Origin: Callorhinchus milii | Taxonomy: Eukaryota | DNA: 64,000 nucleotides | Direction: 5' to 3' | Assembly: GCF_018977255.1 (NCBI RefSeq) | Contig: NW_024704742.1 | Span: 10,480,001 to 10,544,000, forward strand | In this document: positions 995-47,280 of the stretch, in pieces | How positions within the stretch are numbered: position 1 is the first letter of the stretch | How the letters are laid out: each line of letters starts with the position of its first letter | Position numbers and translations under genes: made by a program | Notes under the pieces: generated by a model | The model's database searches: none | What the model was told of the DNA's origin: nothing | What the model saw: only the letters and a program-made list of their open reading frames with translations

Positions 995-1231
<237 letters not shown>

Positions 1232-1289
1232 TAATCTGCTATCCATTTTTCAATCAGCTGTGACTCCAGGTCCATTGCTGTCAGCTTGT

Positions 1290-1810
1290 CTGTCAGACAT
1301 CAAGGCTTGGATGACCGCAAATTTATAATAATAATCCTTGCATTTGATATAGCGTCTTATCACGTGTTTGAGATGTTTGAAAGCTTTTCCCTAAGACTTA
1401 CTGAACCAAACCTGTACGTAACCCGGGTGTCGGGTTTGACCTCCAGCTGACCTTCTTCCCCCACATCTGGTCCCTAACCAAGACTACTTTCCTCCATCCA
1501 CCTTTGTCACATTGCCTGCCTCCAACTGCCCCTTTACGCACTGCACCTCTCTGACTTGCTTTTTCCCCACTCCATTGCCTGCTGCCTCCACTTATGCCTT
1601 CCGCTCCACTATCAGTGGCCTTGTCTTCAGCCACTACATCCCCGAAGCTTTGAAACTCTCTCCTTCAATCCCTCCGTCTTGCCCCCGCCTTCCCCTCTTT
1701 CACTTCACGGCTGAAAACTTCCTCTTCGACCGTGCTTACACAGTCACCTCTCTACCCCCGATTCAGTATTGTGCTGCATTACTGTTAAGTGCTCAGGCGC
1801 ATCCCGCGTG
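1290..1810 (+). mobile_element. Degraded L2 LINE fragments with an inserted SINE tail
   Basis: tgtctgtcagacatcaaggcttggatgacc and ccttcagccactac...ctctctccttcaatccc match L2 pieces elsewhere in the window. Confidence 0.7.
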
Positions 1811-2039
1811 ATTTCAGATTTATTTCAGGAAAGTTAAATGATTACAGAACAATTTAGTTTGCAGTACTTGTAACTTCCAAAACAAAAGTAATAAGTCATG
1901 CTTTGATGTCTTTAAGTAATTTATTAGATTTTGTTTCTTGAAAGAGTTTGATTCCTATTGAAACATGGTTCCACTAGTGCAGGTAGATATTTAATACGTC
2001 AACCAACCCAAGCGCCCATCAATCTTGTTTGAACCTTGA

Positions 2040-2310
2040 CAGTGGATACATTTACACCATTAGTCTGTGGGGACATCACAATTGAGCCTCCTGCCTCATC
2101 TAATATCTGAACATACACACACCATCTAGCAGCGCCTTTATCCAATAGGGAACCGGATTGATCTTCCCCTCCCTAACCCAGAAACACTGTAGCCTTGGCT
2201 AGTATCCACTGACTCAGCACAGACCGGAGTTTAATGTTACATCCTTCTAGCTGCATGGCCAAGTACTGCACCAAGGAATACCTTTACCTACAAGATGATC
2301 AGGGAAGCTG
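2040..2310 (-). mobile_element. Old SINE fragment (AmnSINE2-like); related pieces near 5800-6070, 16980-17120, 24340-24520, 36590-36760 and 38570-38800
   Basis: Recurrent ggggacatcacaattgagcc...actcagcacagacc motif. The family name is from recollection. Confidence 0.45.
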
Positions 2311-2719
2311 AGTTTATTGGATTATAGGGTTATATCTGAAGTATACAGTTTTCAAAGTAATATGCAATAGTCAGTACACCAGAAATTTCATTTCTAATCA
2401 TTCTTGCGTTTTATATAGCACTTTTCATGCTAGGAAGAAGTTTCAAGAACAGACATTCTTATGAAGTGTAGTGACTATTTTGTAAGTAAATGCGGCAGCC
2501 AATTTGTACACAACAATTCCACTCCCACAAACAACCAAAAAGTAAATGAATTTTATCTGGAAAATTATTGGCCAGAACACGAGGAGAAATTACTTTCTCT
2601 TTTTGAATAGAGCTATGGTATCTTTAACATCAACCCAAACAGGCAAACTATAAACACAGGCAAATTATCAATACAGTAACTGCTTAAAAAGTACTATAGT
2701 AATGAGGGTTATAGCAGCA

Positions 2720-3060
2720 ATAACCCTTGTTTTGATATAGCGGCTTATTACGTCTTCGAGACGTCTCAAAACGCTTTACAGAATATACTGTCAAATGAAT
2801 TCACTGTATATTTTGTGGGTGAAACATGGCAACCAATTGAGCACAGCAGTGTCACACAAACAGTCGTGAATTGAAGTGATCAATTTAATATTAATATTAT
2901 TTTAAAATTTATTTTTATTTTGTATGGATTATTACCCCCAGAAAAACGATCAGACAATCGACTAGCAACCGGGTTCCTACTTAGTAGGTAAACAGGAGTT
3001 TGGAGTAAGGAAACTTGCTTGTGAGAGGCGAGTGTTCTAACCATTAAGCTACAGGACTCC
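2720..3060 (-). mobile_element. tRNA-derived Deu-type SINE, long (older) subfamily
   Basis: Reverse complement of the ggagtcctgtagct head, the central gtaagtaggaacc block, the Deu-like core and the tail. Confidence 0.85.
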
Positions 3061-3093
3061 AATAGTTTTATTGATGTGGAGATGAGGCGACTA

Positions 3094-3206
3094 TTTCCAG
3101 GAAACCTGTTTTAAAGCATCTGTAATTTCATGATCATTTTAACCCAGGGTTAACAAGGTTAAAATGATCACGTGACTAGAGATGCTTTAAACTGGTTTCC
3201 TGGAAA
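3094..3206. repeat. 113 bp near-perfect palindrome (MITE/foldback-like) in PP2Ac intron 4
   Basis: tttccaggaaacc..tttaaagcatct..tgatcattttaacc pairs with ggttaaaatgatca..agatgctttaaa..ggtttcctggaaa. Confidence 0.85.
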
Positions 3207-3826
3207 CCGTAGCTGTATTGTTTACTTTCATTCAGAAGATTACATTGCAATAAAGATTCACTTCTTTTAGAGAAGAGCCCTTTTGTTCTAAATATGATTT
3301 TGGTCAATAATTTTAATTGCTTGTATAGAAAATGAATTAATTATTGGGACCTAAGAAAACGTTTGCTTGCAATGAAACTAAGTTTTTGTGTTTCTGATAT
3401 TGACTAAGCACTACTACGAATTCCAGTTCCAAATACTAGGATTCTAATGTTTCATTAGCTCTGAATATTGTGTATTCAACTGGTTTGAAAATGAGTTTTT
3501 CATATTATGGATTTTAGATACCCACAACAATAATTTACACTTATATAGCAACCTCCATGCAGGGTAATATCTCAGAGGCTTAACAGTGGCGGAGCCTGAA
3601 TCTGAGCCAGGGTTTTGGATGGGGTGGGGGAGGTGGCTGTAAGCACAGTTGGAGAGGAAAGTTTTCAGGTGAATTTGAAAAAGGGGAGAGAGGGGGCAAG
3701 GCGGAGGGATTAAGGGAGAGTATTCCAGAGTTTCAGGGTGTGGTAGCTGAAAGCTCGACCTCCGATGGTGGGACGGAGGGTGCAATTCTTTCTGAGGAAA
3801 TGTTGATACTGTAATGAAGATTTTAG

Positions 3827-4108
<282 letters not shown>

Positions 4109-5149
4109 TAAATTCAAGTTCTGCCTTGAAGACTTAAGTATGCTACTCAGTAGGTGGATGTGTGTGTTCAGGTTATGAGCATAATGATGCTCAGCTACTC
4201 ACTTCATGCTATTCTGCTGCTCACCGAGTGGCTTGTGAGAGGTTCCTGCTCCCTGCTATCCAGCTAGCAAAGACTCCAATCAAACCTGTGCTTATCAGTT
4301 GTCTTAACCCACTCATGACTATACTTTTGCGGGGGAGGGAGGGAAATGGGGATTTCTTTGGGCTGAGTTTGTTCCACGATGCTTGGCAATGGCATATCAA
4401 GTTGATCTTCTGATGAAATCAGTAGTCCAGTTCCTGAACCACGCATGTCTGCAGTACTCCAAGACACTGTTGATTACAGAACAACCAGTACGATTCATTA
4501 GCAAGATGTGCAAAAGAAGACCAGTCTCTAGAGTGTCTAACGGGTAAGTTGTCTCTAGCTGGAGAAGTGGAAACTTGCCAGTCAGTGTTTGCAAAACAAG
4601 CTGTGCAGTTTCAGCTGGTGGAACCCCAGTTAACATTCTTGGGTCCCATGCCTTGGCTCTTGCTAATCTGCACCTAATGCTTTCTGGGATTAGGTGAACA
4701 TGTTCTATCTGTGGGAAGAGTGTATACTTCATTTCAGCGAAACAGAAGTTTTATGCAAATGTGAAGCTCTTGCTAGTTTTGTTTGAGTACTCTTGTGCGT
4801 GTGTTGCAATTTCCGCATGTAAAACTATTGACTGATCCCCCAAAAGTATTCTATTTATAGGTGTTTTGCTAAATTGTGGCACAACATCATAACTAGTGAA
4901 GCAGGTAGACATGTAATCAAATTGTTCACAAGCAGCAAATTATTCTTGTGTCTGTTGAAAGATGCTTTTTATGAAATGTATAAAACTTCCAAGTTTTTCT
5001 TAAAAAGAACACATGCATTTAGTTTGATGGGCCACAGAAAATAAGGGGCAGTACTTTTAAAAAAAGTTCGTCCAGTCATACATCCATTTATATATGTGTG
5101 GCTGCTAAGTTTTTTTACACTGTCAAGGAACCAATAGAAACTTCTTAAA

Positions 5150-5291
5150 AGGCAAAATACTGCAGATGCTGATAATCTGAAATAAAAACAGAAGTCGCTG
5201 GGAGGTCATCAACCTGGACCGTTAACTCATTTTCTTCTCTCCATAGATGCTGCCTGACCGGCTGTGTGTTCCCAGCGACTTCTGTTTTTAT
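5150..5291. mobile_element. Shark-type palindromic repeat element (internally deleted) with a perfect 22 bp inverted repeat; partial relatives near 36815-36905 and 49955
   Basis: ataaaaacagaagtcgctggga (5182-5203) is the exact reverse complement of tcccagcgacttctgtttttat (5270-5291); aaatactgcagatgctg end motif. Confidence 0.7.
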
Positions 5292-6688
5292 AATAGAAAT
5301 GTCTTATCTGTTTTCTTTATTCAGTTCTCAGTCCAGTTAATACATTCTGGCATGGTGTGCAGGCCTGACTCCGTTGGTATCACTTTCATCTCTGTCAGAA
5401 GATCCTGGGTTTAAGTCACCTTGGGACTTGGAACTCAACTGGTGTAAGATGACACACCAATGCTAACAAACACTGTAATGATGTTAAACCAGTCCTCTCT
5501 GCTAGTCCAGATGGACGTTAACAATCCCATTGCACTATTTGGAAAGAGAAGGGAGTTTCTCCCAGTGTCCTGGCCAACAATCCTCCAGATAAAATTGTTC
5601 ATCCATTTTACAGCTGTTTGTGGGACATTGTTGTGTGCAAATTAGTTACCAGGTTTGCCCACAAAAAATACACAGTCACTCTACTTTACAGTGTATCCTG
5701 TGAAGTGCTTTGAGGTGCCTTCCCAATATGAAAGGCACTGTATTAAATAAAAAGGTTATTATAATATTTATTATTAATACTAGAATTCCATGTCTGGATG
5801 TCCTCTGATATATCTTAATTGCTTATGTCCTGGCTATTTGACAATGGGGACATCAAAGCCATGCTTGGTCCTTTTCAAGTGATGGTCGAACTGCTAGCTA
5901 AATAGCAGTTGATCATAAACTTCATTGTACCTTTCCCTCTAACTATCTAAGATGTGGCAGACAAGTGTAGCATCCTTGCAGTCACGTCATCTAAGATTAG
6001 CCAACTCAACACAGACCAGGGAATCAGGCCTAGGGTCTGTTTGTTTGTATGGCACAGGTACTAACTGGATGAAGTCTGCTACTGCAGTAGCAGACACTGC
6101 TATTGATAAGTCCTAAAAAGTAAGGAACATTTTTGTTGTGATTTGAGGTTCCCACGTGAAAAATAATTCTCATCCTGGGGCAGCACTTCGAATTTCTGAA
6201 GTCAAATTATGGGTGTTTCTAAAATAGCTGCCAATGATAATAATAATCCTTACATTTGATATAGCGCCTTATGTCGTTGAGACGTCTCAAAGCACTTCGC
6301 AAAATATATTGTAAGGTGAATTAACTGTATTTTGTAGGTGAAATTAAAATGCTTTTTCACTTGTGTGAGGTTGTCACATCTTGAATCAGTCTTTTTAGGG
6401 TTGGTGAGAATTGAAAGAAAGTTGATATTTTCTTTTTAAGTATGAGATAAAATATTAATCCTTGCATTTGATATGGTGCCTTGTCACGTTGTTGAGATAT
6501 AAATTTAGAAAACCTTCGTGCAAACTTATCATGGGGTGAAGTTTAAGGGAGTGGTGACCGTGTGAGTCATTTATAACAAGCATTCTGGAGATAATGCTGA
6601 GAATTGTGTGAAATTAATACTAGCACCTTTGTACTCTGAATAATTAAACTAGGTTGCACAATGCTAAGCTGTTTGTGTTTTGCCCTAG

Positions 6689-6808
<120 letters not shown>

Positions 6809-7893
6809 TAAGTATAATAATAAGTATAAATACATTTTTTAAAAAAGCTAGATATAAAGATTTCTTATTGCATAATTTCTTTGTTATTTAGACCACTTTT
6901 ATAATTAATTTGGATAAAACTGCTTTGTGCAATTTTTCTGTGACCTACCCAGTACAAATATGGAAAAGCAAGGTGATGATGACTGTTTGGTTGTGCCGTG
7001 TGTTCTTAGAAATTCAGACAAGGCATATTTTGGTTCAGCTGAAGTCACACGAGGAAAGGAAAGATCATTTTTTAAAAAAAATTCAATTTTGTGTTGTTTT
7101 TCAAATTTTCTTCCCGCTGGCATATGAATCCCTTTGTGTTCATACACTGTAGCTCTTCCACTACACATTTGGGGCTATCCCATGAGAATAAAGATTGCCC
7201 TGATATATTTTCTGCCTCCAAAGTGACTAACTACAAAGTACAACAACAATAATAATGGCAATGCTATTGCAGATGTCTTTTCAGGTGAAATGTATTGGTT
7301 TTGAGTGAAAATTTATTTCATAAAGTAATTGAATATGTGTCAGTGTCATCTAAAAGAACTTTCAGAAGCATAGTTTTCAAAAATGCTATCGCATCTCCCA
7401 ACGACAGTGTGATTCATGCTGTGGGGTGGTTCACAGGCTCTGGTACATCTCTAGGTCCTTGCCCACATGGTCATTCTAACAATTAGCTCAGATCAGGCAA
7501 TCACTCCCTACAACATGGTTATATAAGATGTCACTGAAAAAGACTATTTTTGAATTGTACAGTTTTTCCACTCGAAAGTTCTAGGGTTTTCAAGTATTCC
7601 CTTCTTTTCCTTTTTAAAATATTAAAAAATGTATCATCTCTTATTGCCTGGTTAATCTTTGCTACAATTAATTTCAAGATTGCTTTCCTTGAGATTTTCA
7701 ACAATTCCAAAGATTTGTTGAGGTGCAAACAGATTTAATTGCAGAAAAATTAGCAACTTGTAAACAAGATATAAATTGCTGCCTACTTAAAGCTGAAAAT
7801 CCAAATTGCAAGTGGAATCATAGAAATTTACAGCATAGAATACTATTCAGCTAGTTCTCTCAGAGCAAGCAGATGTGTTTGTAGCTTTCATGA

Positions 7894-8097
<204 letters not shown>

Positions 8098-8715
8098 ATT
8101 TATTTGTACACTACATCCACGTCAGCAGTTCACCTGCTCTAGAAAAGCAACAATATTTAAATGTTTTTCTAAACTTATTTGGGTTTGTCCAACTTCAAAG
8201 CATTAACATGGACCAAAATGTGCCATATACTGAAGGCATCTGTATGCCTAGGAGCTTTGAGCACAATTTGACAGTGGTTATTTGTTTCAGAAACGGTATT
8301 GTGCAGTCCCAACAGTCAAAATTTTTTGCCTGCTGTACCGTTTGTAGTTACTTGTCATTTTGTTTTATCCAGACTGTGAAATATCGATGTACAAATGGTA
8401 TGATTAAAACAGCTACAAATGCAATAGTCATGACATTTTTAGTTGTAGTTTTATCAGGCATGTATTTGGTTTCAGTACATTTTTTGGTTTTGAAAGAGAC
8501 ACAACCTGCTCCATTTTGAATGTATAGTGTGAAGGTTTAAAAGAGGGTGAAATGGCTCTTGGAATGTCTGCTGGAGTGTTGGAGAAAATACCCCCCTTTT
8601 TCAATGTTTGAATCACTGTTCTGTGTTACTGTACCTTATTTCTGTATATTTGTCATGAAAGTGCTTGCAGCTTATTTGGTGTATTTCAAAAAATAAAACA
8701 ACTTCAAATCATCAG
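8098..8715 (+). other. PP2Ac 3' UTR (approximate end)
   Basis: Repeat-free AT-rich stretch after the stop. It contains CATGGACCAAAATGTGCCATA, a block I recall from mammalian PPP2CA/CB UTRs, and ends near AATAAA. Confidence 0.7.
8692..8697 (+). terminator. Polyadenylation signal AATAAA of the PP2Ac gene
   Basis: AATAAA about 600 nt after the stop, followed by T/GT-rich sequence; repeats resume shortly after. Confidence 0.65.
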
Positions 8716-19020: not shown

Positions 19021-20189
19021 GTAAGTGCCAAGCAGTGCCCTCATTACCTCCGCAAAAGTAAATGCTATCAAACAATGCAAACATAATTCATCATAACAAG
19101 TTATTTTTAGATGCTACTCTGAAGGGGGCTATATCAATGCAAATTGTTGTAGTTTTTGCAGAGTGCCATTCACATAAAAGAACATTGAAAAAAGGTGCAT
19201 GAACTAAGCAGGATAACTGCAACTCTTTCAGGTATTTTATGGTCTAAATGAACAAATGGGAAGAGGGCAGGAAATAGAAGAAATATTATAAAAGGAAAAT
19301 TCTGCATAATGATTCTGTGGAACATTAGAGCTGTTGGTCTCTCTATTGAAAGATATGTAAATGATGAAAATGTAATTACCCCCTTAAACACATATTTAAA
19401 TTAACAGTGAAATTTGCAAGTATCCAGAACTCTGGAGAAATGGAACTCCGGCCATTTGATTAGCTTCAAACAGCTTCCTCATCACCCTCCCATATTTGCT
19501 ATAGCCCCTGCAATGCACAGTTACTATACTTATTAATAAGTATGTAAGCAGTGAAAATGTAATGGTCCCGCCTCACATTTAATGCGATGTTCTGTATGGT
19601 AAACATTTGGGATTTCCAGATATTTATGGAGAAGAGGGGGGAAGGAGAAGAAGAGAAAATTAACCTAACTTTTTTTCTAATTTTCTTGCCTGCATTGATG
19701 CTGTGAGCCAGCTGGAAGGAAGAAGACAGATATCTCATTTAGATTTTCTCTTTCTTCCAATTGGAGCATCCCTATAGCAGAAACAATGGCAAACAAGATA
19801 AAAGCTTCGAATGGCCACCTAATCACTCTCCCATACTTGCTATAGACCCTGCATTGCAATAAAGTACAATGCAATTTACATCTATGCAACACCTTTCACA
19901 TCAAGAAGATGTACGTGTCAAAGCACTTCACGCAGCTGGCTTGACAGTGGAAGAGAGTGATGGGGGGAATCAATGTGTGTTCATTCATCCCTTGTTGATT
20001 TCCACTTCATTAAGTGGAAGTTAGACAAAATGCTTTCTGCACAACAGCTGAAAGTCATAGACTTATTCCCTGCATTTTAACCCATTGATGATGTTCATGC
20101 ATCTTTAAGGATAACACCCAACTTAATTAGACCTTCACTACAATGAGGAAAATGCATCCACATGTTGTTCACTGTTCCTTCCAAACTAG

Positions 20190-36194: not shown

Positions 36195-36512
36195 CCGAGT
36201 TGTTCGCATCTGGAATGCACTGCCTGAAAGGGAGGTGGAAGCAAATTTGATAACAACTTTCAAGAGAGAAGTGGGTAGATATTTGGGGAGGACAAATTTG
36301 CAAGGGAGAGAGCGGGAGAGTGGGATAGCTCTTTCAAAGAGGCGGCGTCCATTCTATTCTTCTGTTCTACTCCGCGCTGTCCATGATTACAGAATGGTTT
36401 CAATTGAGAAGCTCAAATTTTTGAGAGCTGAACCCTCTGCCATTGCTCGAAGGGTTAAGAACACGATGGGCCGAATGGCCTCCTTCGGTGCTGTGTAATT
36501 CTATGTTTCCAT
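36195..36512 (+). mobile_element. CR1 3' fragment interrupted by a 116 bp copy (36347-36462) of 36983-37098
   Basis: CR1 tail reads ctttcaaagaggcggc | insert | acgatgggccgaatggcc. Confidence 0.85.
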
Positions 36513-36982
36513 GAATCCCTCTTGGATCATATGGGCTACCACTGTCTTTTTTCCTTCCCGACTCTCACCCTCTGCATTTCTGCTTGTCAAATGGCAATTG
36601 CCACTAGTTAGTCAGGCCGGCTCCCCAATCTATTCAGAAATACTGGAAATGAAGAACAAATCAGCCCAGTCTAATCCTGTCCTCATCCAGTGTCCATATT
36701 CATAGACATCCAGCAGGGGTCACTGCATACCTATCAAAAGCAGAGACCTTCACTAATTTTTCCCTAACTCAGTTCCCAAAGAGTCATACTCACACTAAGC
36801 CCCTGTCACTCGCTCTCTCTCTCTCTCTTTCAGATTGTAATTGCTGCCCTCTCCATTTCCAACATTTTCTGGCTTTATTTCAGATTTCCAGGATCAGCTG
36901 ATTTTTCTTATTCTCTCTAATTCTCCCAACTAACAAATCATTTAGCTTAAAATGATATTATAAAGTGAGGAATTTTCCGCGG

Positions 36983-37098
36983 GTCCATTCTATTCTTCTG
37001 TTATACTCCGCGCTGTCCATGATTACAGAATGGTTTCAATTGAGAAGCTCAAATTCTTGAGAGCTGAACCCTCTGCCATTGCTCAACGGGTTAAGAAC
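36983..37098. repeat. Donor sequence of a 116 bp direct duplication
   Basis: Near-identical to 36347-36462 (about 4 differences by eye). Confidence 0.9.
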
Positions 37099-38848
37099 CA
37101 TTTCCTTTCATGTTGATTTATTTTGATTTATTGATTTATTTCACACTCCGCCCTTGTGTGTAATATTACTGTTTTAGTGGAAATACAGCGTTTTTAGGTT
37201 AAAAGAATACAAAAAGATAAAATAGAATGAATATCAAAGGAATTGCCTGTTCAAGGCATGAATCAATATGAGCCTTCTGAATTATTTAGAATACTGTAGT
37301 TCTGTTTAGCATTACTTTTAACACACAGCATAAGGGAACATTTGAAATCACAGCTCACAAGCTGTGAGGGAATCATTCCAGTCAAATGTTCCATTTTCTT
37401 CCTCTCCTTCGCATCTTCCTCTTTTTCTCCCATCCACATCTTCAAATTTGTTTACTCCCCAGTTTCTAAAGAACTGCTGGGAATTTGGCTCCTATCAGCT
37501 GGCTCCAGCCTCCTGTTCGTACCCCGTACCCTACGCTCCACCATTGGTGGCAGTGCCGTCAGCCACTACGCCCCGAAACTCCGGAACTCTCTCCCTCAAT
37601 CCCTCCACCTTGCCCCCTTCCCCCACCTTCAAATCCCGCCTAAAGACCTTCCTTTTTGATCGTGCTTGCCGTCACCTCCCTCCTTTCCCTTCCCTTGGCT
37701 CATTGTCACACTCCGCTACTGTCAAGCGCTCCAGTATGCTACTGCACATGAAGGGCTTTATATAAATGCAAGTTGAAACTGTTTCCCAAAACCTTACTGT
37801 GCCTTTGTTAAGGTCTTTGGTTTGATCTTTAGTCTTTACTAGAGATCAAACCAGGCTGGTGTAATGATAATGATGCTACAATTGACCTCAAGACTGATGA
37901 GTTGGGGAGGAGGGGAAGGGGGAATGTTCTGCTTTATTTTGATGCTAGGCTGTTCTCATTTACCTTCTATTAAACCAAGTTAGACTGAATCCTGTTCCTC
38001 AAATGAGAAGGTAGGTTGTCCCCCAGACAACCAATTTCCTCCCCAAATCTGCATCCCAAATCATCAAATGACAATAAGGACCCAATTCCTTACTCACGAC
38101 CACTTGACCAAGTCAAGTGGCTGGATGGCCTCCCTGGCCTGGGCAAGCCTGGTCTCACCCTGGTGATCAAGGGCTCAGGTTAGAGTCATATTCCAGTTTC
38201 TCCACACCTCTTTGAAAGCAGATCAAGACCCTCTGACATCCCAAACCAACAGAGGACCGAAGGCTTAGTATTCCTGGCAGTAGCTCTGCACCACACAGAT
38301 AAACCATGGGGCAGTTCAGATCGAGGTACATCTATATCCCATATCCTTATATGGTATCTGAACTTCTGTCAGGCATTATCAAGTGCACAGCCCAAGGAGC
38401 AACTGTTAACAACAGATGGCCTACACTTAATCTTCCATTTTGATTGTGCTTACAGTCACCTTCCCACTCCCTCCCCCTGGCTTGGGGTCCACCACTATCA
38501 AGCACTCTGGGATGCCATCCCGTGTGAAAGACTTATATAAATGTAAATTGTTGTTTTGTAATCTTAGCTAAAAGGGCAACTTATCACACTCCAGTGTTCA
38601 CAGGTACAAACTGCTGATAAGGTTGAGCTGAACTGGAATATCTGTGTCTTCCTTCCCATGACCCCTCCAGCTGTAAATAGTCGGTTGGCACTCACTATCC
38701 TCTATCCTAAGCATACACATGAAGAATTGTCACTTGGCCAGCAGACCTGCCAATGAATATAGAACTGGAGCAAAGCAAGAGTTTCTGATCCTCGGGCGAG
38801 GAGGAGGAGAGAAGAGTAAGGAAAGTCTAACTCTTGCCTCTTTTCAAG

Positions 38849-39031
38849 GGTGATGCAGGGCTCACAGGACGGAAGATCATCGTTGACACTTATGGAGGAT
38901 GGGGTGCTCACGGTGGGGGTGCTTTTTCTGGGAAGGACTTTTCCAAAGTTGATCGCTCTGCTGCCTATGCTGCACGCTGGGTGGCAAAATCCTTGGTAAA
39001 GGCTGGGCTGTGCAGGAGAGTTTTAATTCAG
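38849..39031 (+). CDS. mat2al: MAT exon 7 ([61 protein letters not shown])
   Basis: 183 nt, ttcaag| ... |gtaagc; GGGAFSGKD signature. Confidence 0.96.
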
Positions 39032-39864
39032 GTAAGCCTGTTTGTGCTTATAACAAACAAGAAGTTGCAAGATTATTATAATGATCCCTGCATTTGATAT
39101 AGTGCTTTATCATGCTGTCGAGACATCTCAGAGTGCTTTACATCATCGACTGTTAAGTGTAGTGAATGGAGGCGAATGTGCATCCGATTTGCACACAGCC
39201 ATGTTCCACAAACAGCTATGAAGTCAATGACCAATTTTATTTGGGGTCTTGATGGCCAAGACATCAGGAGAAACTCCCTTTTGTTTTCAAATAGTGCTAT
39301 GGGATCTTTAATGTCTACTTGAACAGGCAGATGGGGCATCAGTTTAACATGTCATCTGAAGGTCAGCAGCTCCATCTATGCAGAACTCCCCCAGCATGTC
39401 AGCCGTGACTGAGTTCAATATTCACAACGTGGCCAATTCACTCAGAGCCAACAGTACTACCAACTGAGCCATTGTGAGATGTTTCGATGCAATGAGGTGC
39501 TTTAAAACAACAAATTACACTTGTATAGCATCCTTTATACTGGAAAGACGTCCCAGGGTGCTGGACAGTCAGGAGTTTTGGACCCGAGCTGGGAGGGGTG
39601 CAGGACAGGGGGGATGGGGGTGGGAGGGTGGCTGAAGGTACAGTTGAAGAGGAAGGTCTTTAGACAGGACTTGAAGGAGGCAAGAGAGGGGATAAGGTGG
39701 AGGGATTGCGGGATAGAGTTCCAGAGTGTGAGGGCTGAGAAGCTGAACGGTAGGATGCAAGCTATAAGAATGCAAATTCTCTCTTTTACCATATCCAGAA
39801 AGAAACAAAACATAATGCAAGTAGACCTCAGTTAAAAAAAATCACTGTTTTATTCTTCTATTAG

Positions 39865-39998
39865 TTATCGTATGCAATTGGCATCAGCTACCCGCTGTCG
39901 ATCTCGATCTTCCATTACGGGACCTCAACCAAATCAGAATACGAGTTGCTGGAGATTGTGAACACCAACTTTGATCTGCGCCCCGGAGTCATTGTCAG
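39865..39998 (+). CDS. mat2al: MAT exon 8 (LSYAIGISYPLSISIFHYGTSTKSEYELLEIVNTNFDLRPGVIV)
   Basis: 134 nt, tattag| ... |gtttgt. Confidence 0.94.
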
Positions 39999-40024
39999 GT
40001 TTGTCTCATTCACTACTTGGCGCG

Positions 40025-40941
40025 ACTGATTAAACATTCCGTCATAACTGTAGTCAGCAGCACAGTCTAATGGTCCAGGTTCAGAGCAGAAGCTGACTAA
40101 CAACGAGGTGATCACTGGTTAATGTCCCAGAGCCCCAGAGCTGTTTGTCATTTGACCAATTGTGCATCACATGCAAATCCAAGCCAATAATGGCATATCT
40201 TCCAACAGACCCTTTGCCTGACTGTCAGCCCCCGAACCTTCAGTCACCATGCCTCTACCCTTTGGATCACTCTCCCTAAATCCTGCCGCCTCACCTTCTG
40301 CCTTTGAAAACCTCCTGAAAATCCACTACTTCAACTGTACCTGCATTCAACTACCCCAACTTCCCTGCTCAGTGTCTGGCAGTCACTGTAAAGGACTGTA
40401 TAAAAACAAGTTCCTTTACTATCTGGGAATGAAGAAATAATAAGCAGATAATTAACTTTAATCATTAGTTAGAAACGTGGTGTGCACAAGAGGAAATTGA
40501 GTTTATAGATAACTGATGGCGCACAGCAGTACCCCACAAATAGTCGTGCATTGAATGACCAATTGACTATCGACTAACAACCAGGTTCCTACTTACTGCT
40601 AGGTAAACAGAGGTGTGTGGAGTAAGGAAACTTGCCCAACATTTCACCCTGTCCGGGAATCAAAGCTATGTCTCTCGCTTGTGAGGTGAGTGCTCTGATC
40701 ACTGAGCTACAGGACTACAGAATAAGCCAATTGAGTGGGGATCCTATACATATGAAAAGGGGCCCCACTTCTCCTAGTACTTTCCCCATTTGTGCTCTGT
40801 GCAAATTGGCCAACGTGTTCACCCATGGAATACTCAGTCACTGCACTGTATTTGAGATGTTCTCCTTATATGGAAGACGCAGTATGAAATTCAAGGATTA
40901 TTATATTCTCTTTTAAATGGAAAATGATTGTCCAATAAACT
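40025..40941 (+). repeat. Donor: most of MAT intron 8 (39999-40982), duplicated at 42073-42990
   Basis: Direct comparison; also seen as twin ORFs 40249/42297 and 40632/42680. Confidence 0.95.
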
Positions 40942-40982
40942 TCAAGCAATGTCTTTGACATCTCTGCTCTTATTCACATCAG

Positions 40983-41085
40983 GGAGTTGGACCTGAAGAA
41001 GCCCATCTATCAAAAGACAGCTTGTTATGGACATTTCGGCAGAGAGGAATTCTCTTGGGAAAAACCAAAGAACTTGGTTTTTTAA
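40983..41085 (+). CDS. mat2al: MAT terminal coding exon 9 ([34 protein letters not shown])
   Basis: Acceptor catcag|; YGHFGR motif; TAA at 41083-41085. The nine exons sum to 1185 nt (394 aa plus stop) with no frameshift. Confidence 0.95.
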
Positions 41086-41438
41086 CGGTACCTGCCGCAC
41101 ATATGTGCACAAAACGTACCGGTTGATAGGTTTGCAAGGCAGTACGTGAAAAACCCAACCTTCCTCGAATTGGTGGTGAAATCTGGTTTAGAGTTGCACT
41201 CAGGTTTACTGGCCTGCAGGTTCGAGTTGTCACACCAATAATTTGAATTTTATTTGAAAACTACAAACCAGTGCAAAAATCACAGACTTTTACATCCCAG
41301 TGGCACCATTATAGCAACATTCTACAGTGAATTTTACAGCATCGTTGCCTGAGTGTTTGAGATTTGTTGTAAAACACTTCCACAAAGACTGCATTCAGAC
41401 AGTTTTATTACCTTAAATAGTTGTGCCATGACCAACAC

Positions 41439-41444
41439 ATTAAA
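41439..41444 (+). terminator. Candidate polyadenylation signal ATTAAA for the MAT gene
   Basis: First hexamer-like signal I see after the stop. Alternatives are AATAAA at about 42983 (inside the duplicated segment) and about 43569. Confidence 0.35.
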
Positions 41445-41679
41445 TAACAAGGTCAAATTCACAATAGTTTTGAAGCATTTTATTTAAGGAACCTTTTGAT
41501 AACTTCCAATAGTTGGTGCAATTCTTTCCAGGCTAAGTGGTTTGCTCCTCTTCCAGGTTCCAGCACCACTATTGTTTTTGACCCCGAAGCAAGTTTTTTT
41601 GTTAGTCCTTTCACAGCATTGCTATTTTAAGAGTGGAAATCCATGCTCAGTCCCCCAAAAATGACCATTGTAGGGCCAC

Positions 41680-43185
41680 ATCCACAGCAGCCGAAACCCT
41701 TGTCCACACCTTTGTCACTTACCGGCTTGACTTTTCAAATGCCCTCCCCAGCTCCACCATACACAAAATACAATTAATTCAGAATTCCACCGCCTAGATA
41801 CTCACCCGCACAAAACTCTGTACCCCCATCACACAGCCGTTGTTATGCTCCACTGGTTCCCAATTACTGAACAGATCGATTTCAAGATCCTCTTACTCGT
41901 TTTCAAATCCCTTCATGCCCTCGCACCTCCCTACCTCTCCAATTTGCTTACTCCCCACACTCCACCACCTTCTGCTGCCCCTTGGCCGGTTCTGACCTCC
42001 TATTCGTTCCTCGGCACCTCCGCTCCACCAACGGTGGCCATACTTTCAGCCACTACGCCCCGAAGCTCTGGAACTGATTAAACATTCCGTCATAACTGTA
42101 GTCAGCAGCACAGTCTAATGGTCCAGGTTCAGAGCAGAAGCTGACTAACAACGAGGTGATCACTGGTTAATGTCCCAGAGCCCCAGAGCTGTTTGTCATT
42201 TGACCAATTGTGCATCACATGCAAATCCAAGCCAATAATGGCATATCTTCCAACAGACCCTTTGCCTGACTGTCAGCCCCCGAACCTTCAGTCACTATGC
42301 CTCTACCCTTTGGATCACTCTCCCTAAATCCTGCCGCCTCACCTTCTGCCTTTGAAAACCTCCTGAAAATCCACGACTTCAACTGTACCTGCATTCAACT
42401 ACCCCAACTTCCCTGCTCAGTGTCTGGCAGTCACTGTAAAGGACTGTATAAAAACAAGTTCCTTTACTATCTGGGAATGAAGAAATAATAAGCAGATAAT
42501 TAACTTTGATCATTAGTTAGAAACGTGGTGTGCACAAGAGGAAATTGAGTTTATAGATAACTGATGGCGCACAGCAGTACCCCACAAATAGTCGTGCATT
42601 GAATGACCAACAGACTATCGACTAACAACCAGGTTCCTACTTACTGCTAGGTAAACAGAGGTGTGTGGAGTAAGGAAACTTGCCCAACATTTCACCCTGT
42701 CCGGGAATCAAAGCCATGTCTCTCGCTTGTGCGGTGAGTGCTCTGATCACTGAGCTACAGGACTACAGAATAAGCCAATTGAGTGGGGATCCTATACATA
42801 TGAAAAGGGGCCCCACTTCTCCTAGTACTTTCCCCATTTGTGCTCTGTGCAAATTGGCCAACGTGTTCACCCATGGAATACTCAGTCACTGCACTGTATT
42901 TGAGATGTTCTCCTTACATTGGAAGGCGCAGTATGAAATTCAAGGATTATTATATTCTCCTTTAAATGGAAAACGATTGTCCAATAAACTCTCTCCCTCA
43001 ATCCATCCACCTTGTCCGCTCCCTCCCCACTTTCAAATGCCAGCCAGATCTTCCTTTTTGATCGTGCTTACGGTGACCTTCCCCCACCCTCTCCCCCAGC
43101 TCGGGGTCAGACTCCGCCACTGTCAAGCGCTCCTGGACGCTACCCCTCGTGAAGGGCATTATATAAATGCAAGTTGTTGTTGTTG
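41680..43185 (+). mobile_element. L2 3' fragment split by the 918 bp intron-8 copy (42073-42990)
   Basis: Removing the insert restores gaagctctggaact|ctctccctcaatcc, as in the intact L2 copy at about 37570-37610. Confidence 0.9.
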
Positions 43186-45834
43186 TAAACCATTACAAAC
43201 ATCAAATGCACACCTCGGGTTAAACAGTAGTGGCATTAAGACTTGGCCATTGGCAAACCGTTTAATTGGAGAGGACTTTTTGTACCATTTTTTGTTTGTT
43301 ATCTAAGGCTCTGAAATAAGACTGAGAATATTTCAAATGTTACCACAAATTTTGCTTCAGTTTTGCAGTCCTGAGTAGACCTAACTTTCAGTTACCTAGT
43401 ATATGTGTACTGCTCACATGTGGGGCGGGGGAGTGCAGGAGTGAATTACAGATGCCCTCATGCCCTGTGTCCGGGAGTTAATGGGGACAGAAAAATATGT
43501 CAGTTGAAGATGTTGGGTTCTGAACAATGAACAGAATAAGACTGACTTATTCTACTCAGTCCTCTTTTAATAAAGGACCTGAGAACAGATGAACCGAAGA
43601 CACTCAGCAAAATGCTTTAAAAATTCTTTACTTGATGAGAAATGTGAAGTTTGTTTGTTCAATTATCACAAATACAACAGACAGGTCAATAGCATAGACA
43701 CATACCTGTATCAAAATCAGTTGGTAAGTTCACAAACAGCAGGCAAAAGTCTTACATCAATGAAAGGTCTTTTGATTCAGACCTGAAACCTCTTGCTTGG
43801 GTTCAGTGATTACAAAGTCAAAGTTGAATCTTTAAGAGTGTACAGCTGAGCTGTGTACTTTACTCGCCAGTTGTTATATGTTGTTATTCTTCTCCTCCCT
43901 TTCCAAATGATTTCAACATTCTAGAATTTCTGCAGTTTTACTTCTTCCTGAAATTGCTGAAAGTTGATGAAACGATGGAACAGTACAAGTCTGATGGATT
44001 TTAATCCCGAAGACAACACATTTGCTTCACCACTTCATGGCTCTTGTGTGGACAGAACCTGATATGCTCTGTCCTAGGTTGAACAAAGTGTAGTTAAGCC
44101 ATACATCTATTATAATTGATTTTCCACAGAACATTCTCATGTCCATGAAGCAATTATCTTACATAAAAATAATAATAAAATATAATCTGCAGAATTGTCG
44201 CTGCACCTGTAGAATTGTTATTGAAGAACATCCTCAACAAACACCAATGAAAAACACCAATTGTTATATAAAAACATGAATTGTTATAAAACTTGAATTG
44301 TTATAGAAAACATCTTTAACACAAAACTAATTAAAACAAGAATTTGTTATGGGAAAACATCTTCAGCTACAAAAATGAAATTAAAGAAAATATTAAAGAT
44401 TAAAGAAAAAATTGCCTACTTCAAATCGTAATCCAAACAAAATCAAAATGGTGGGAACTTGCATCAAACCATGTCAGGACCTCAGTTTCGGCTGACACTC
44501 CATTGCAATGTTCTCAACATAATGTTATTTGGGATCTAAAGCAAATCAATTAATGTGATATACTGAGAAGTTTGTACCATTTGTTCCTTGAATGTATGTG
44601 AGTCTACAAAATATAGTTACTACAGTTTGATGTACTACACTTTGATGTCCTGGCACAGGACACATTCAACTGCTAACTTAATCACTGGAGTCTTTATTAA
44701 ACCTCCCTAACATTATAAATCAAAACAGCATTGCCCTGAACTAGTTGGTGCACAGAAAGTTCACTAATTTCATATGAAGGACGCAACCAAGTAAGGGGAA
44801 ACTGATTGCAGATTCACACCAAATGTTTTTTCTAGAGGTGAGCTGGACCACAAAATTCACAAGATTGCAAAATGGTTGCAGTAGAATCAGAAAGTTTGTA
44901 GCACAGAAATAAACCATTCAGCCATTAAATGTGCTGGTATTGGTTCCTCCATACTCTTAATATTATTTTCCTCAAGTAATTGTCCAATTCCCTTTCAAAT
45001 GCTATTTTGGACTTTGCTTCAGACAATTTGGATTAAAATGTAAAACATTCATATTGTCAGTAATTAATTAGTGTATAGTCAGTCATTCATAAATTGCATT
45101 GGTAATCACTGAAAAATCTGGCTGTTATTTCTATTGCTGTGCAATTTTTTTTATTTTCACACTTTATCAGAATGATAAAGCTATCAAAAATAATTATGTG
45201 CTCTAAACATATTTTTTAGAAACAGTAGAATATCAAGATCTTAAATATGCTTTTACCATCATTTTGTACTTCATGCTAAAATATTACATTGTGGAGCTAC
45301 GTTCGTGAGATATTGTGGATGTGAATTATTACTGGCTAATAAATATTCAAAAGAACATTGGAAGAACTCAAGTCTTCTACAAGACACAGTTTTGCTGGCT
45401 TGTGTGTTGAACACTGCAGAGGGAGCGCTCATAAGTACTTTCAGATGTAAATGACTGCCTAAGTCTGGATGAAGCCAGCCTCTCATGTGGCACATTAAAA
45501 AATACAGCTCCAACTGTAAACTTTGCAATAGACATAACTCAATTGGTTCCTCATTACAAGAATGCCAGCAATTCAAAATGTTATTTCACATGAGGAAAAA
45601 ATAATCCTGCTTTGTCTTTTTTAAAAAAACTGCTGGTATATTTTTAAGCAAGACATTTGTGCTGACTAGTAGACATTATTTACATCTCTGTAGAGGAAAC
45701 AAGAGCAAAACTACCTAAAATGGTGCATGGAACCCAGAAAGCACAAGACAACAAGACCAGACAACCATGCAGGAAGGTTAAAGGGGAAAAGAGTAAAAAT
45801 AGGTGCATATATTTGAATTTTCTGAGGGTAATAA

Positions 45835-45926
45835 CCAGCTTGGGTCCGAAACACTGACTGTCCAGTGCCTTGGGACATCCTCCCAACACAAGAGGTGCTA
45901 TACAAATGTTTCTCTTGTTGTAATAA
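45835..45926 (+). mobile_element. Short L2 3' tail inserted into a Deu-type SINE with a GTAATAA target-site duplication; the host SINE continues to about 46142 with a tandemly duplicated tail
   Basis: gggGTAATAA|ccagcttggg...ttgttGTAATAA|tccc; tatcaaatgcaaggattattatt occurs twice. Confidence 0.8.
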
Positions 45927-46449
45927 TCCCTTAAAAAGAAATTTGGTCACTCAATCCATGACTATTTGTGGGACACTGCTGTGCGGAATTGGCTGCTGCG
46001 TTTCGCCCACAAAATATACAGTCAATTCACTTTACAGTATATTCTGTGAAGCGTTTTGAGACGTATCGAAGACGTGATAAAGCGCTATATCAAATGCAAG
46101 GATTATTATTATTATTATATCAAATGCAAGGATTATTATTATGATAAATGCTAGAAGCATCCAAAATAAAATGGTGGAACACAGAAAGTAGGAGCATTTA
46201 TTTTGTTTCTTTTGAATTAAGATGCGCATTAATACCCTAATCCATGCCTAAATTTGAGCTTTGGAGTCTGAACTGTAAATCACTGGCGGTAGAGCAATCT
46301 GGGACTTGTCTTGTGCCCTTTTAATGCTGCAGTTCCAGAGAACCACCAGATGGGGGCAGTTTACGTGTTCTGGCTGGAACAATGTTGAATAAAGTGATTA
46401 GTAACTCTCTTGTAAATCAAAGCCTTTCTCATTGCAGACCTTTTTCATG

Positions 46450-47280
46450 GGAGCTAAGATGACAGGTTTAAAAGGTCTTCAAGCAAGGGTAAATAGGAAT
46501 AGATTACTTTCATTGGTCGGGGCATAATGGCTGAAAGCTCAGCCACCAATGGCGGAATGGAGGGCATGAGGGACATGCAGAAGCCCGTAGCCAGTTGAGC
46601 AGAGGCAGCGGGTTGTGGGTTGGAGTGTAAGCAGGTCAGAGAGGTAGGGAGTTGCCAGGGCAAGAAGATTTGGAAATGAGTGTGAGGATCTTGAAATTGA
46701 TCCGTTCAGCGATAGGGAGCCAGTGACGCCTAGCTAGAACTGGTGTGATGGGGGTACGGAGTTTAAAGTGGGCGAGTATGCGGGTAACAGAGTTTTGGAT
46801 CAGCTGAATCTTGTGCATGGTGGAGCTGGGGAGACCGGCAAAGAGGGAATTTGAAAAGTCAAGCCGGGAAGTGATGAATGCATGGACGAGTGTTTCAGCT
46901 GTATCTGGGGTGAGGTCTGGTCGGAGGTGAGCAACATAATAATAATAATAATAATAATAATAATCCTTGCATTTGATATAGCGCTTTTCATGTCGGGAGG
47001 ATGTCCCAAAGCACTTCACAGAACACACTGTAAAGTGAATTGACTGTATATTTGTGGACGAACGCGGCAGCCAATTGCGCACAGCAATGTCCCACAAACA
47101 GTCGTAGATTGAAAATGACCAATTCGTTATTGTTTTGGGTTTTTGGAGGGATTATTATTAGGCGTGTGGAGTAAGGAACTTGCCCAAGGTTTCACCCTGC
47201 CTGGAATTAAACCCAGGTGTCTCGCTTGCAAAGCGTGGTGGAAATGGAGGAAGGCGGTCCTGGTCAGGACATTCCCCTTT
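46450..47280 (-). mobile_element. L2 fragment with a nested young SINE (about 46937-47235)
   Basis: TAETLVHAFITSRLDFSNSLFAGLP... in ORF 46636-; SINE on the minus strand. Confidence 0.88.

Follow-up and report, generated by a model that had tools for sequence, protein, structure and literature searches.

Most likely a repair-mediated duplication: a young and unusually long copy of the last intron in the probable 3' UTR of a putative mat2al-type gene of the elephant shark

How did almost the whole of an intron come to lie a second time beyond the stop codon of its own gene? This question is raised by a 64-kb window of the Callorhinchus milii genome (the whole stretch of DNA that was analysed), which carries a methionine adenosyltransferase (MAT) gene on its forward strand. 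After comparing the window to itself by BLAST and aligning the resulting pair, we found that positions 40025-40941 recur on the same strand at 42073-42990, over 918 alignment columns with 11 mismatches and 1 gap (98.7% identity). This is the strongest self-match in the window, neither of its ends could be extended by even one base, and the window contains two copies only. The duplication is real, confirming that a second copy of the intron 8 segment exists; an earlier note on this DNA had reported 917 of the 984 nt of intron 8 recurring with about a dozen differences, and the alignment bears this out.

The donor segment (40025-40941, 917 nt, starting with ACT and ending with AACT) represents 93% of intron 8, which is the last of eight introns (39999-40982, 984 nt, GT-AG). 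Approximately 60% of it consists of old repeat fragments and approximately 39% has no paralogue in the window. Both splice signals lie outside the copied part, and our coordinates agree with the previous description of a copy which is short of the first 26 and the last 41 nt of the intron and contains no exon sequence. The copy itself (42073-42990, forward strand) is 918 nt long counting the shared ACT and AACT, adds a net 915 nt and is separated from its donor by 1132 nt. The insert follows about 990 nt after the stop codon, the last base of which is 41085, in line with the distance of about 1 kb given earlier. A weak tRNA-like match (22.5 bits, under the gathering score) was also seen at 40649-40716 on the reverse strand, in a SINE fragment within the donor.

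The intact 394-aa frame of the MAT gene is divided over nine coding exons by eight GT-AG introns, and the protein is identical to RefSeq XP_007904126.1 from Callorhinchus milii at 394/394 residues. Exon 9, the coding part of which (including the stop codon) lies at 40983-41085, scored nearer to MAT1A (54.7 bits vs 46.3 bits for MAT2A), exon 8 (39865-39998) scored nearer to MAT2A (66.6 bits vs 56.1 bits for MAT1A) and exon 6 was level (89 vs 88). The closest non-self proteins are those of fish, and those with paralogue names are mostly called "methionine adenosyltransferase II, alpha-like" (up to about 79%). Judging from these database matches and names, the gene is probably the Callorhinchus milii mat2al-type paralogue and not MAT2A. 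Zebrafish mat2al is described, in the available text of one study, as approximately equidistant from both human genes (PMC3410756). Our literature search on the MAT gene in Callorhinchus found nothing. Upstream of the MAT gene, at 1064-8100, are exons of a gene which we take to be PP2A catalytic subunit-like and which is useful for synteny.

This likely identity bears on the proposal that the copied intron corresponds to the SAM-regulated last intron of MAT2A. Rfam includes MAT2A hairpin families; a search of 38800-46500, up to an E value of 5, gave 3 matches, none of which was to a MAT2A family. The METTL16 consensus nonamer UACAGAGAA was absent from the window, the closest sequence being TACAGTGAA at 41323, with a folding z of +1.26. 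According to the accessible part of a review on mammalian MAT2A, whose last intron is detained and regulated by SAM, this regulation requires UACAGAGAA hairpins in the 3' UTR (PMC9778287). Our locus is similar in gene family and in last-intron position, but the gene appears to be a mat2al-type paralogue, and its 3' UTR is without UACAGAGAA hairpins. The argument from a SAM-regulated intron is therefore unsupported.

The copy was found to split a LINE relic into a 5' part (41688-42075), which ends in AACT and is 78% identical to its closest paralogue in the window, and a 3' part (42991-43188), which includes a short TTG-repeat tail and is 80% identical to its closest paralogue; both are on the forward strand. 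From its look we call the relic (41688-43188) an L2. Pfam returned 0 families for the split relic, which neither confirms nor denies this label, and across six pieces of the relics it gave no family and 2 weak matches. When the insert and one AACT were deleted in silico, the site became gap-free at the junction against 12/12 spanning paralogous repeats from the window, one of which sits within the copy itself. No bases were lost from the target and AACT was duplicated; the donor shares ACT with the left junction and AACT with the right, and there is no filler and no poly(A). Thus the split at AACT, the duplication of this motif, the microhomology and the lack of poly(A), all described before, hold; the name L2 goes by likeness. 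Because the emptied site aligns gap-free to all of the spanning paralogues, the intron is the donor. The target is the relic, which is far older. The relic has diverged by about 20% from its closest paralogues and donor and copy are merely 1.3% apart, indicating that the copy entered an element which was already dead. Homeologous recombination between relics was rejected, as the 75% alike L2 fragment in the donor (copy positions 42284-42339) coincides with neither junction.

We compared four of 24 sequencing runs (X1, X2, X8 and X17) over 40942-45500. X2 and X8 were taken as RNA by guess and not by record, and are hence referred to as probable RNA. Both junctions are bridged by four contigs from these two runs, which belong to two studies. 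In X8, record 27 (41760-42606) and record 31 (42672-43128) link the copy to its LINE flanks; in X2, record 20 (42045-42646; 31 letters left of the junction, at the detection threshold) bridges the left junction and record 21 (42672-43127) the right. The earlier note had proposed to confirm both junctions by spanning long reads or PCR; here it is assembled contigs which span them. The copy is present in other individuals. An assembly or haplotype artefact might still be suspected, as among the contigs listed none covers the whole region and none of the 8 pieces listed for X1 bridges a copy junction. However, the copy is tied to its LINE flanks in two studies, X1 contains both the donor and the copy letter at 42960 and the junctions fall cleanly within the repeat, and we consider an artefact scarcely credible. 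No joint skipping the insert exactly was found among the best 15 of 726 joints, and the loose ends at 42075 (X8) and the joint 42061-42987 (X17) resemble paralogous LINE copies. The 8 pieces listed for X17 (organism B) are all repeat fragments and leave exon 9 uncovered. It should be noted that the k-mer depths in X1 (16.0 and 17.9, where a two-copy model expects 16.3 and 19.6) measure depth and not copy number, and were given no weight.

The contigs of X2 and X8 overlap or nearly abut and extend over the copy, interrupted at about 42607-42671, where a repeat fragment lies. They cross the AATAAA carried in by the copy (42983-42988, ending 2 nt before the right junction) unbroken and continue for 1.9-2.3 kb, reaching 44923 and 45301. 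As these contigs run past the new AATAAA, the copy lies within the 3' UTR if the two runs are RNA, as is probable. The copy also brought in ATTAAA (42077) and TATAAA (42447). The claim that the copy supplies an AATAAA therefore stands; as for the suggestion that it could alter the choice of 3' end, the contigs continue through the new AATAAA, which is not an obligatory end. No poly(A) site was deduced, since the contigs of the two runs stop at different points. X2 record 24 ends 10 nt past an AATAAA at 44908-44913 and X8 stops short of an AATAAA at 45338, although contig ends do not show RNA ends. All 4 substitutions in X8 record 32 (43240-45144) are G or C in the window and A or T in X8.

X2 record 17 comprises exon 9 and UTR and departs from the genome at 40979 with 1100 more letters; exons 1-8 hold 1082 coding bases. 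From this length and the departure at the exon edge we read it as spliced mRNA. With regard to intron 8 retention, there is this spliced-looking contig in X2, and in X8 the donor letters are ambiguous. As a passenger, the copy lengthens the 3' UTR by 915 nt.

Seven of the 12 differences between donor and copy could be polarised by paralogous repeats: 4 are derived in the donor (at copy positions 42296, 42715, 42917 and 42926) and 3 in the copy (42611, 42612 and 42732). Derived changes are thus found on both sides, and there is no one-sided signature of copying error. A bias towards G/C in the copy (9/10, P = 0.02) was considered as such a signature and, with the changes polarised, turned out not to be one. 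The difference at 42926 is allelic, as the donor contig of X1 has the copy letter there. In X8, copy contigs which are joined to the flanks have donor letters at 42375, 42508, 42715 and 42732 and copy letters at 42917-42974, and record 31 runs unbroken across 42960 without the donor letter. An older allele alone does not account for this pattern, since at 42715 it is the donor that has the derived letter (paralogues 14 to 1). A donor-to-copy gene conversion tract is the likelier explanation; the alternative is an assembly path which mixed in intron-8 RNA, and this would favour an RNA template. Over the final 80 nt the differences are bunched (4-5 events, P = 0.001-0.008, for a span picked post hoc; clustered at 42917-42974) and the first 223 nt are identical, both of which also fit conversion. 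Donor and copy have probably partly converted each other since the event, and due to this the divergence of 1.3% may understate its age. Nevertheless, it is comparable in magnitude to what is seen between alleles (5 differences in 3096 flanking bases in X8), and the event is therefore young.

The window holds 7 two-copy pairs, and one other of these is young. This second local copy (36342-36462, forward strand, 121 nt, 96% identity) lies in another retroelement tail, presumably CR1-like, of which about 11 nt are missing. Its donor (36979-37098, forward strand) is located in the middle of intron 6 of the same MAT gene, 517 nt downstream of the acceptor, 4107 nt from the 5' splice site and 1750 nt from the 3' splice site. 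The 121-nt copy is an event of the same kind which is unrelated to splice sites, so that 1/2 of the young local copies in the window fits an intron. An older pair is found in intron 2 (19462-19517 and 19803-19858; 56 nt, 82% identity, 286 nt apart).

We favour a DNA-templated, repair-mediated local duplication, to which we assign a probability of roughly 0.8. A germ-line break or stalled fork would have occurred at an AACT in the long-dead LINE relic, 1 kb beyond the stop codon, and one broken end would have paired, through 3-4 nt of microhomology, with the chromosome 1-2 kb further upstream. This end would then have copied about 915 nt of intron 8, been released and rejoined the other end at the same AACT, by synthesis-dependent strand annealing or by out-and-back template switching. 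Either a staggered break with strand annealing or an out-and-back switch would leave one short motif at both junctions without deletion, because the strand comes back to the bases that immediately precede the point at which it left. The earlier note had already proposed that microhomology mediated a templated insertion into the old LINE relic, and the junction structure and the contigs agree with this; the break, the enzymes and the DNA nature of the template are what we infer.

Events of this kind are known. In the available text of Pace, Sen, Batzer and Feschotte 2009 (PMC2671141), a repair-mediated duplication (RD) is a TE interrupted by a copy of neighbouring DNA. RDs are defined there by an insert of at least 50 bp in a TE, the halves of which are contiguous within 30 bp, by a donor at a distance of between 50 bp and 5 kb, by the insert being found at one other genomic place and by an outgroup with the site empty or, failing an outgroup, by comparison with the TE consensus. 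Their junctions show microhomology with or without deletion, filler or target duplication, and no poly(A/T) tail. Here the TE is split with contiguous halves, the donor is 1.1 kb away, and the junctions share 3-4 nt of microhomology with a 4-nt target duplication and no poly(A). Within the 64-kb window the insert has one other place. The emptied site agrees with paralogous copies, and in the runs compared no orthologous empty site was seen. In the same text 824/1136 donors were less than 5 kb away (with a peak near 1.2 kb), microhomology was 2-9 nt, poly(A/T) was found in 0/39 inspected proximal cases and microhomology together with target duplication in 3/39. Our case differs in having a near-whole intron as donor, a 3' UTR as acceptor and a chondrichthyan host. 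Two of the acceptors in that study lie in a 3' UTR; zebrafish accounts for a further 80 cases, and chondrichthyans are not among the animals surveyed in the available text. Our case is also longer: 917 nt exceeds the observed range, a descriptive one, of proximal human inserts (mean 162, longest 619 bp), and this counts against DNA repair, as does the finding that both ends of the copied segment are no more than 45 nt away from those of a single intron.

Two further classes are set out in the accessible part of Onozawa and Aplan 2016 (PMC5110952). Class 1 TSIPs, of LINE-1 type, have a target duplication of at least 5 bp, poly(A) 10-20 nt after AATAAA and a TTTT/A site; our copy does not match such a retrocopy, having a 4-nt duplication, no tail, an AATAAA 2 nt from the junction and AACT as its site. 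With class 2 TSIs/TSIPs it shares the patching of a break, microhomology, the lack of poly(A) and an intronic donor, but it does not match these either, as they have distant donors and no target duplication, whereas our donor lies close by and there is a duplication of AACT.

The close fit to one intron may instead be due to RNA-templated repair in cis, in which a break in the gene was filled by reverse transcription of its own intron 8, either as an excised lariat or as a nascent intron still bound by the spliceosome. Priming would have been from the right-hand end, at the AACU just upstream of the branch point, with joining at the ACT near the 5' end. The insert would then be a germ-line fossil of the spliced-out intron, its ends would delimit what the machinery at the 5' splice site and the branch point left free, and a stable intron-8 RNA, mixed into the assembly, would account for the donor letters that X8 shows within the copy. 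In favour of this, almost an entire intron was copied with no exon and neither splice signal, between the 5' splice site and three branch-point-like words (at 40955, 40969 and 40973, spanning 40955-40973; motif matches and not a mapped branch point). The right end uses the most 3' of the 8 AACT in the intron, 5' of all three words, and the longer microhomology is on the side which, as we infer, a sense RNA template would need. Such a fit is rare by chance. With the length fixed at 917, 68/5902 positions within 3 kb, or 68/9902 within 5 kb, lie wholly in one intron; with the ends tied to ACT/AACT, 0.2-1.0% of pairs come to no more than 45 nt from both ends of one intron. Of the gene's introns, these calculations involve introns 6-8 only. 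The chance is therefore 0.2-1.2% under length-flat position or microhomology nulls, and 2e-6 to 2e-4 with exponential lengths of mean 162-500. The available texts also describe RNA at the break site as the better repair template in yeast (PMC12686478), RNA-derived patches at breaks (PMC5110952) and stable lariats of short introns in vertebrate oocytes (PMC6112733). However, this is a single case, chosen post hoc out of some 250,000 scanned windows; the second event in the same gene shows no intron fit. The left end uses the third ACT of the intron and not the first, bypassing two sites nearer to the 5' end (40012 and 40015). The gene is probably not MAT2A and is without its hairpins, X2 record 17 leaves the genome at the edge of exon 9 as a spliced mRNA would, and X8 record 31 lacks a donor letter at 42960. 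In the same sources, the experimental templated insertions for which an RNA origin is argued came from distant loci (PMC5110952), just 13 stable lariats were found in zebrafish eggs (PMC6112733) and the RT-PCR profile of zebrafish mat2al resembles that of mat1a, starting after gastrulation begins (PMC3410756). RNA-templated repair in cis is similar in that a gene's own RNA could template repair of its own locus, although its signature, as described in the available text, is deletion of a whole intron (PMC12686478), whereas here an intron copy was inserted. Our literature search found no precedent for a local insertion templated by a lariat or an intron, with most subscription papers outside its coverage. 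The idea of an RNA template, raised by the earlier note, thus gains from a fit which is rare by chance and loses from there being one event, a second event blind to introns and nearer ACT sites left unused. We consider it unlikely, but because the fit is so uncommon it retains an appreciable share of the probability, a weight which is a judgement and was not computed.

Two DNA-based alternatives were also weighed. A small circle, closed at the ACT/AACT direct repeat on the sister chromatid or homologue, could have re-integrated at the AACT of the relic; ACT and AACT mark the two ends of the donor, and crossing over at the junction of the circle yields the exact product, as a matter of geometry only. 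Such a circle must open at its own junction and not at any of 7 other AACT, and must land 1 kb from its source, neither of which is required by the template-switch model, making it very improbable. Still harder to believe is a mobile element of 915 nt which inserted at both places and duplicated 3 nt of its target. Both copies are flanked by ACT, but there is no terminal inverted repeat (6-11 of 20 matches), and the unit is a mosaic of old repeat fragments and unique DNA, present in two copies only in the window, in which the old fragments hold changes private to each copy.

The locus is therefore most likely to contain a real, young and unusually long repair-mediated duplication in the 3' UTR of the elephant shark mat2al-type gene, a clean scar of repair in a lineage outside the survey of Pace et al. 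A living mRNA has been changed by it, the UTR having gained 915 bases and further poly(A)-like signals. The last exon, exon 9, is now flanked by direct repeats of 98.7% identity, 2048 nt apart, and unequal crossing-over between these would delete or double this exon. If the template was RNA, the copy would be direct evidence that excised spliceosomal introns are written back into DNA, relevant to how introns are gained and to germ-line repair from RNA templates, and would reveal a route for excised introns back to the chromosomes, the mirror image of whole-intron deletion. The presence of two young events in one gene suggests that such copies are common in this genome, which is slow-evolving according to the available text of its description (PMC3964593), and as local copies seem common it would be a good place for a genome-wide test.
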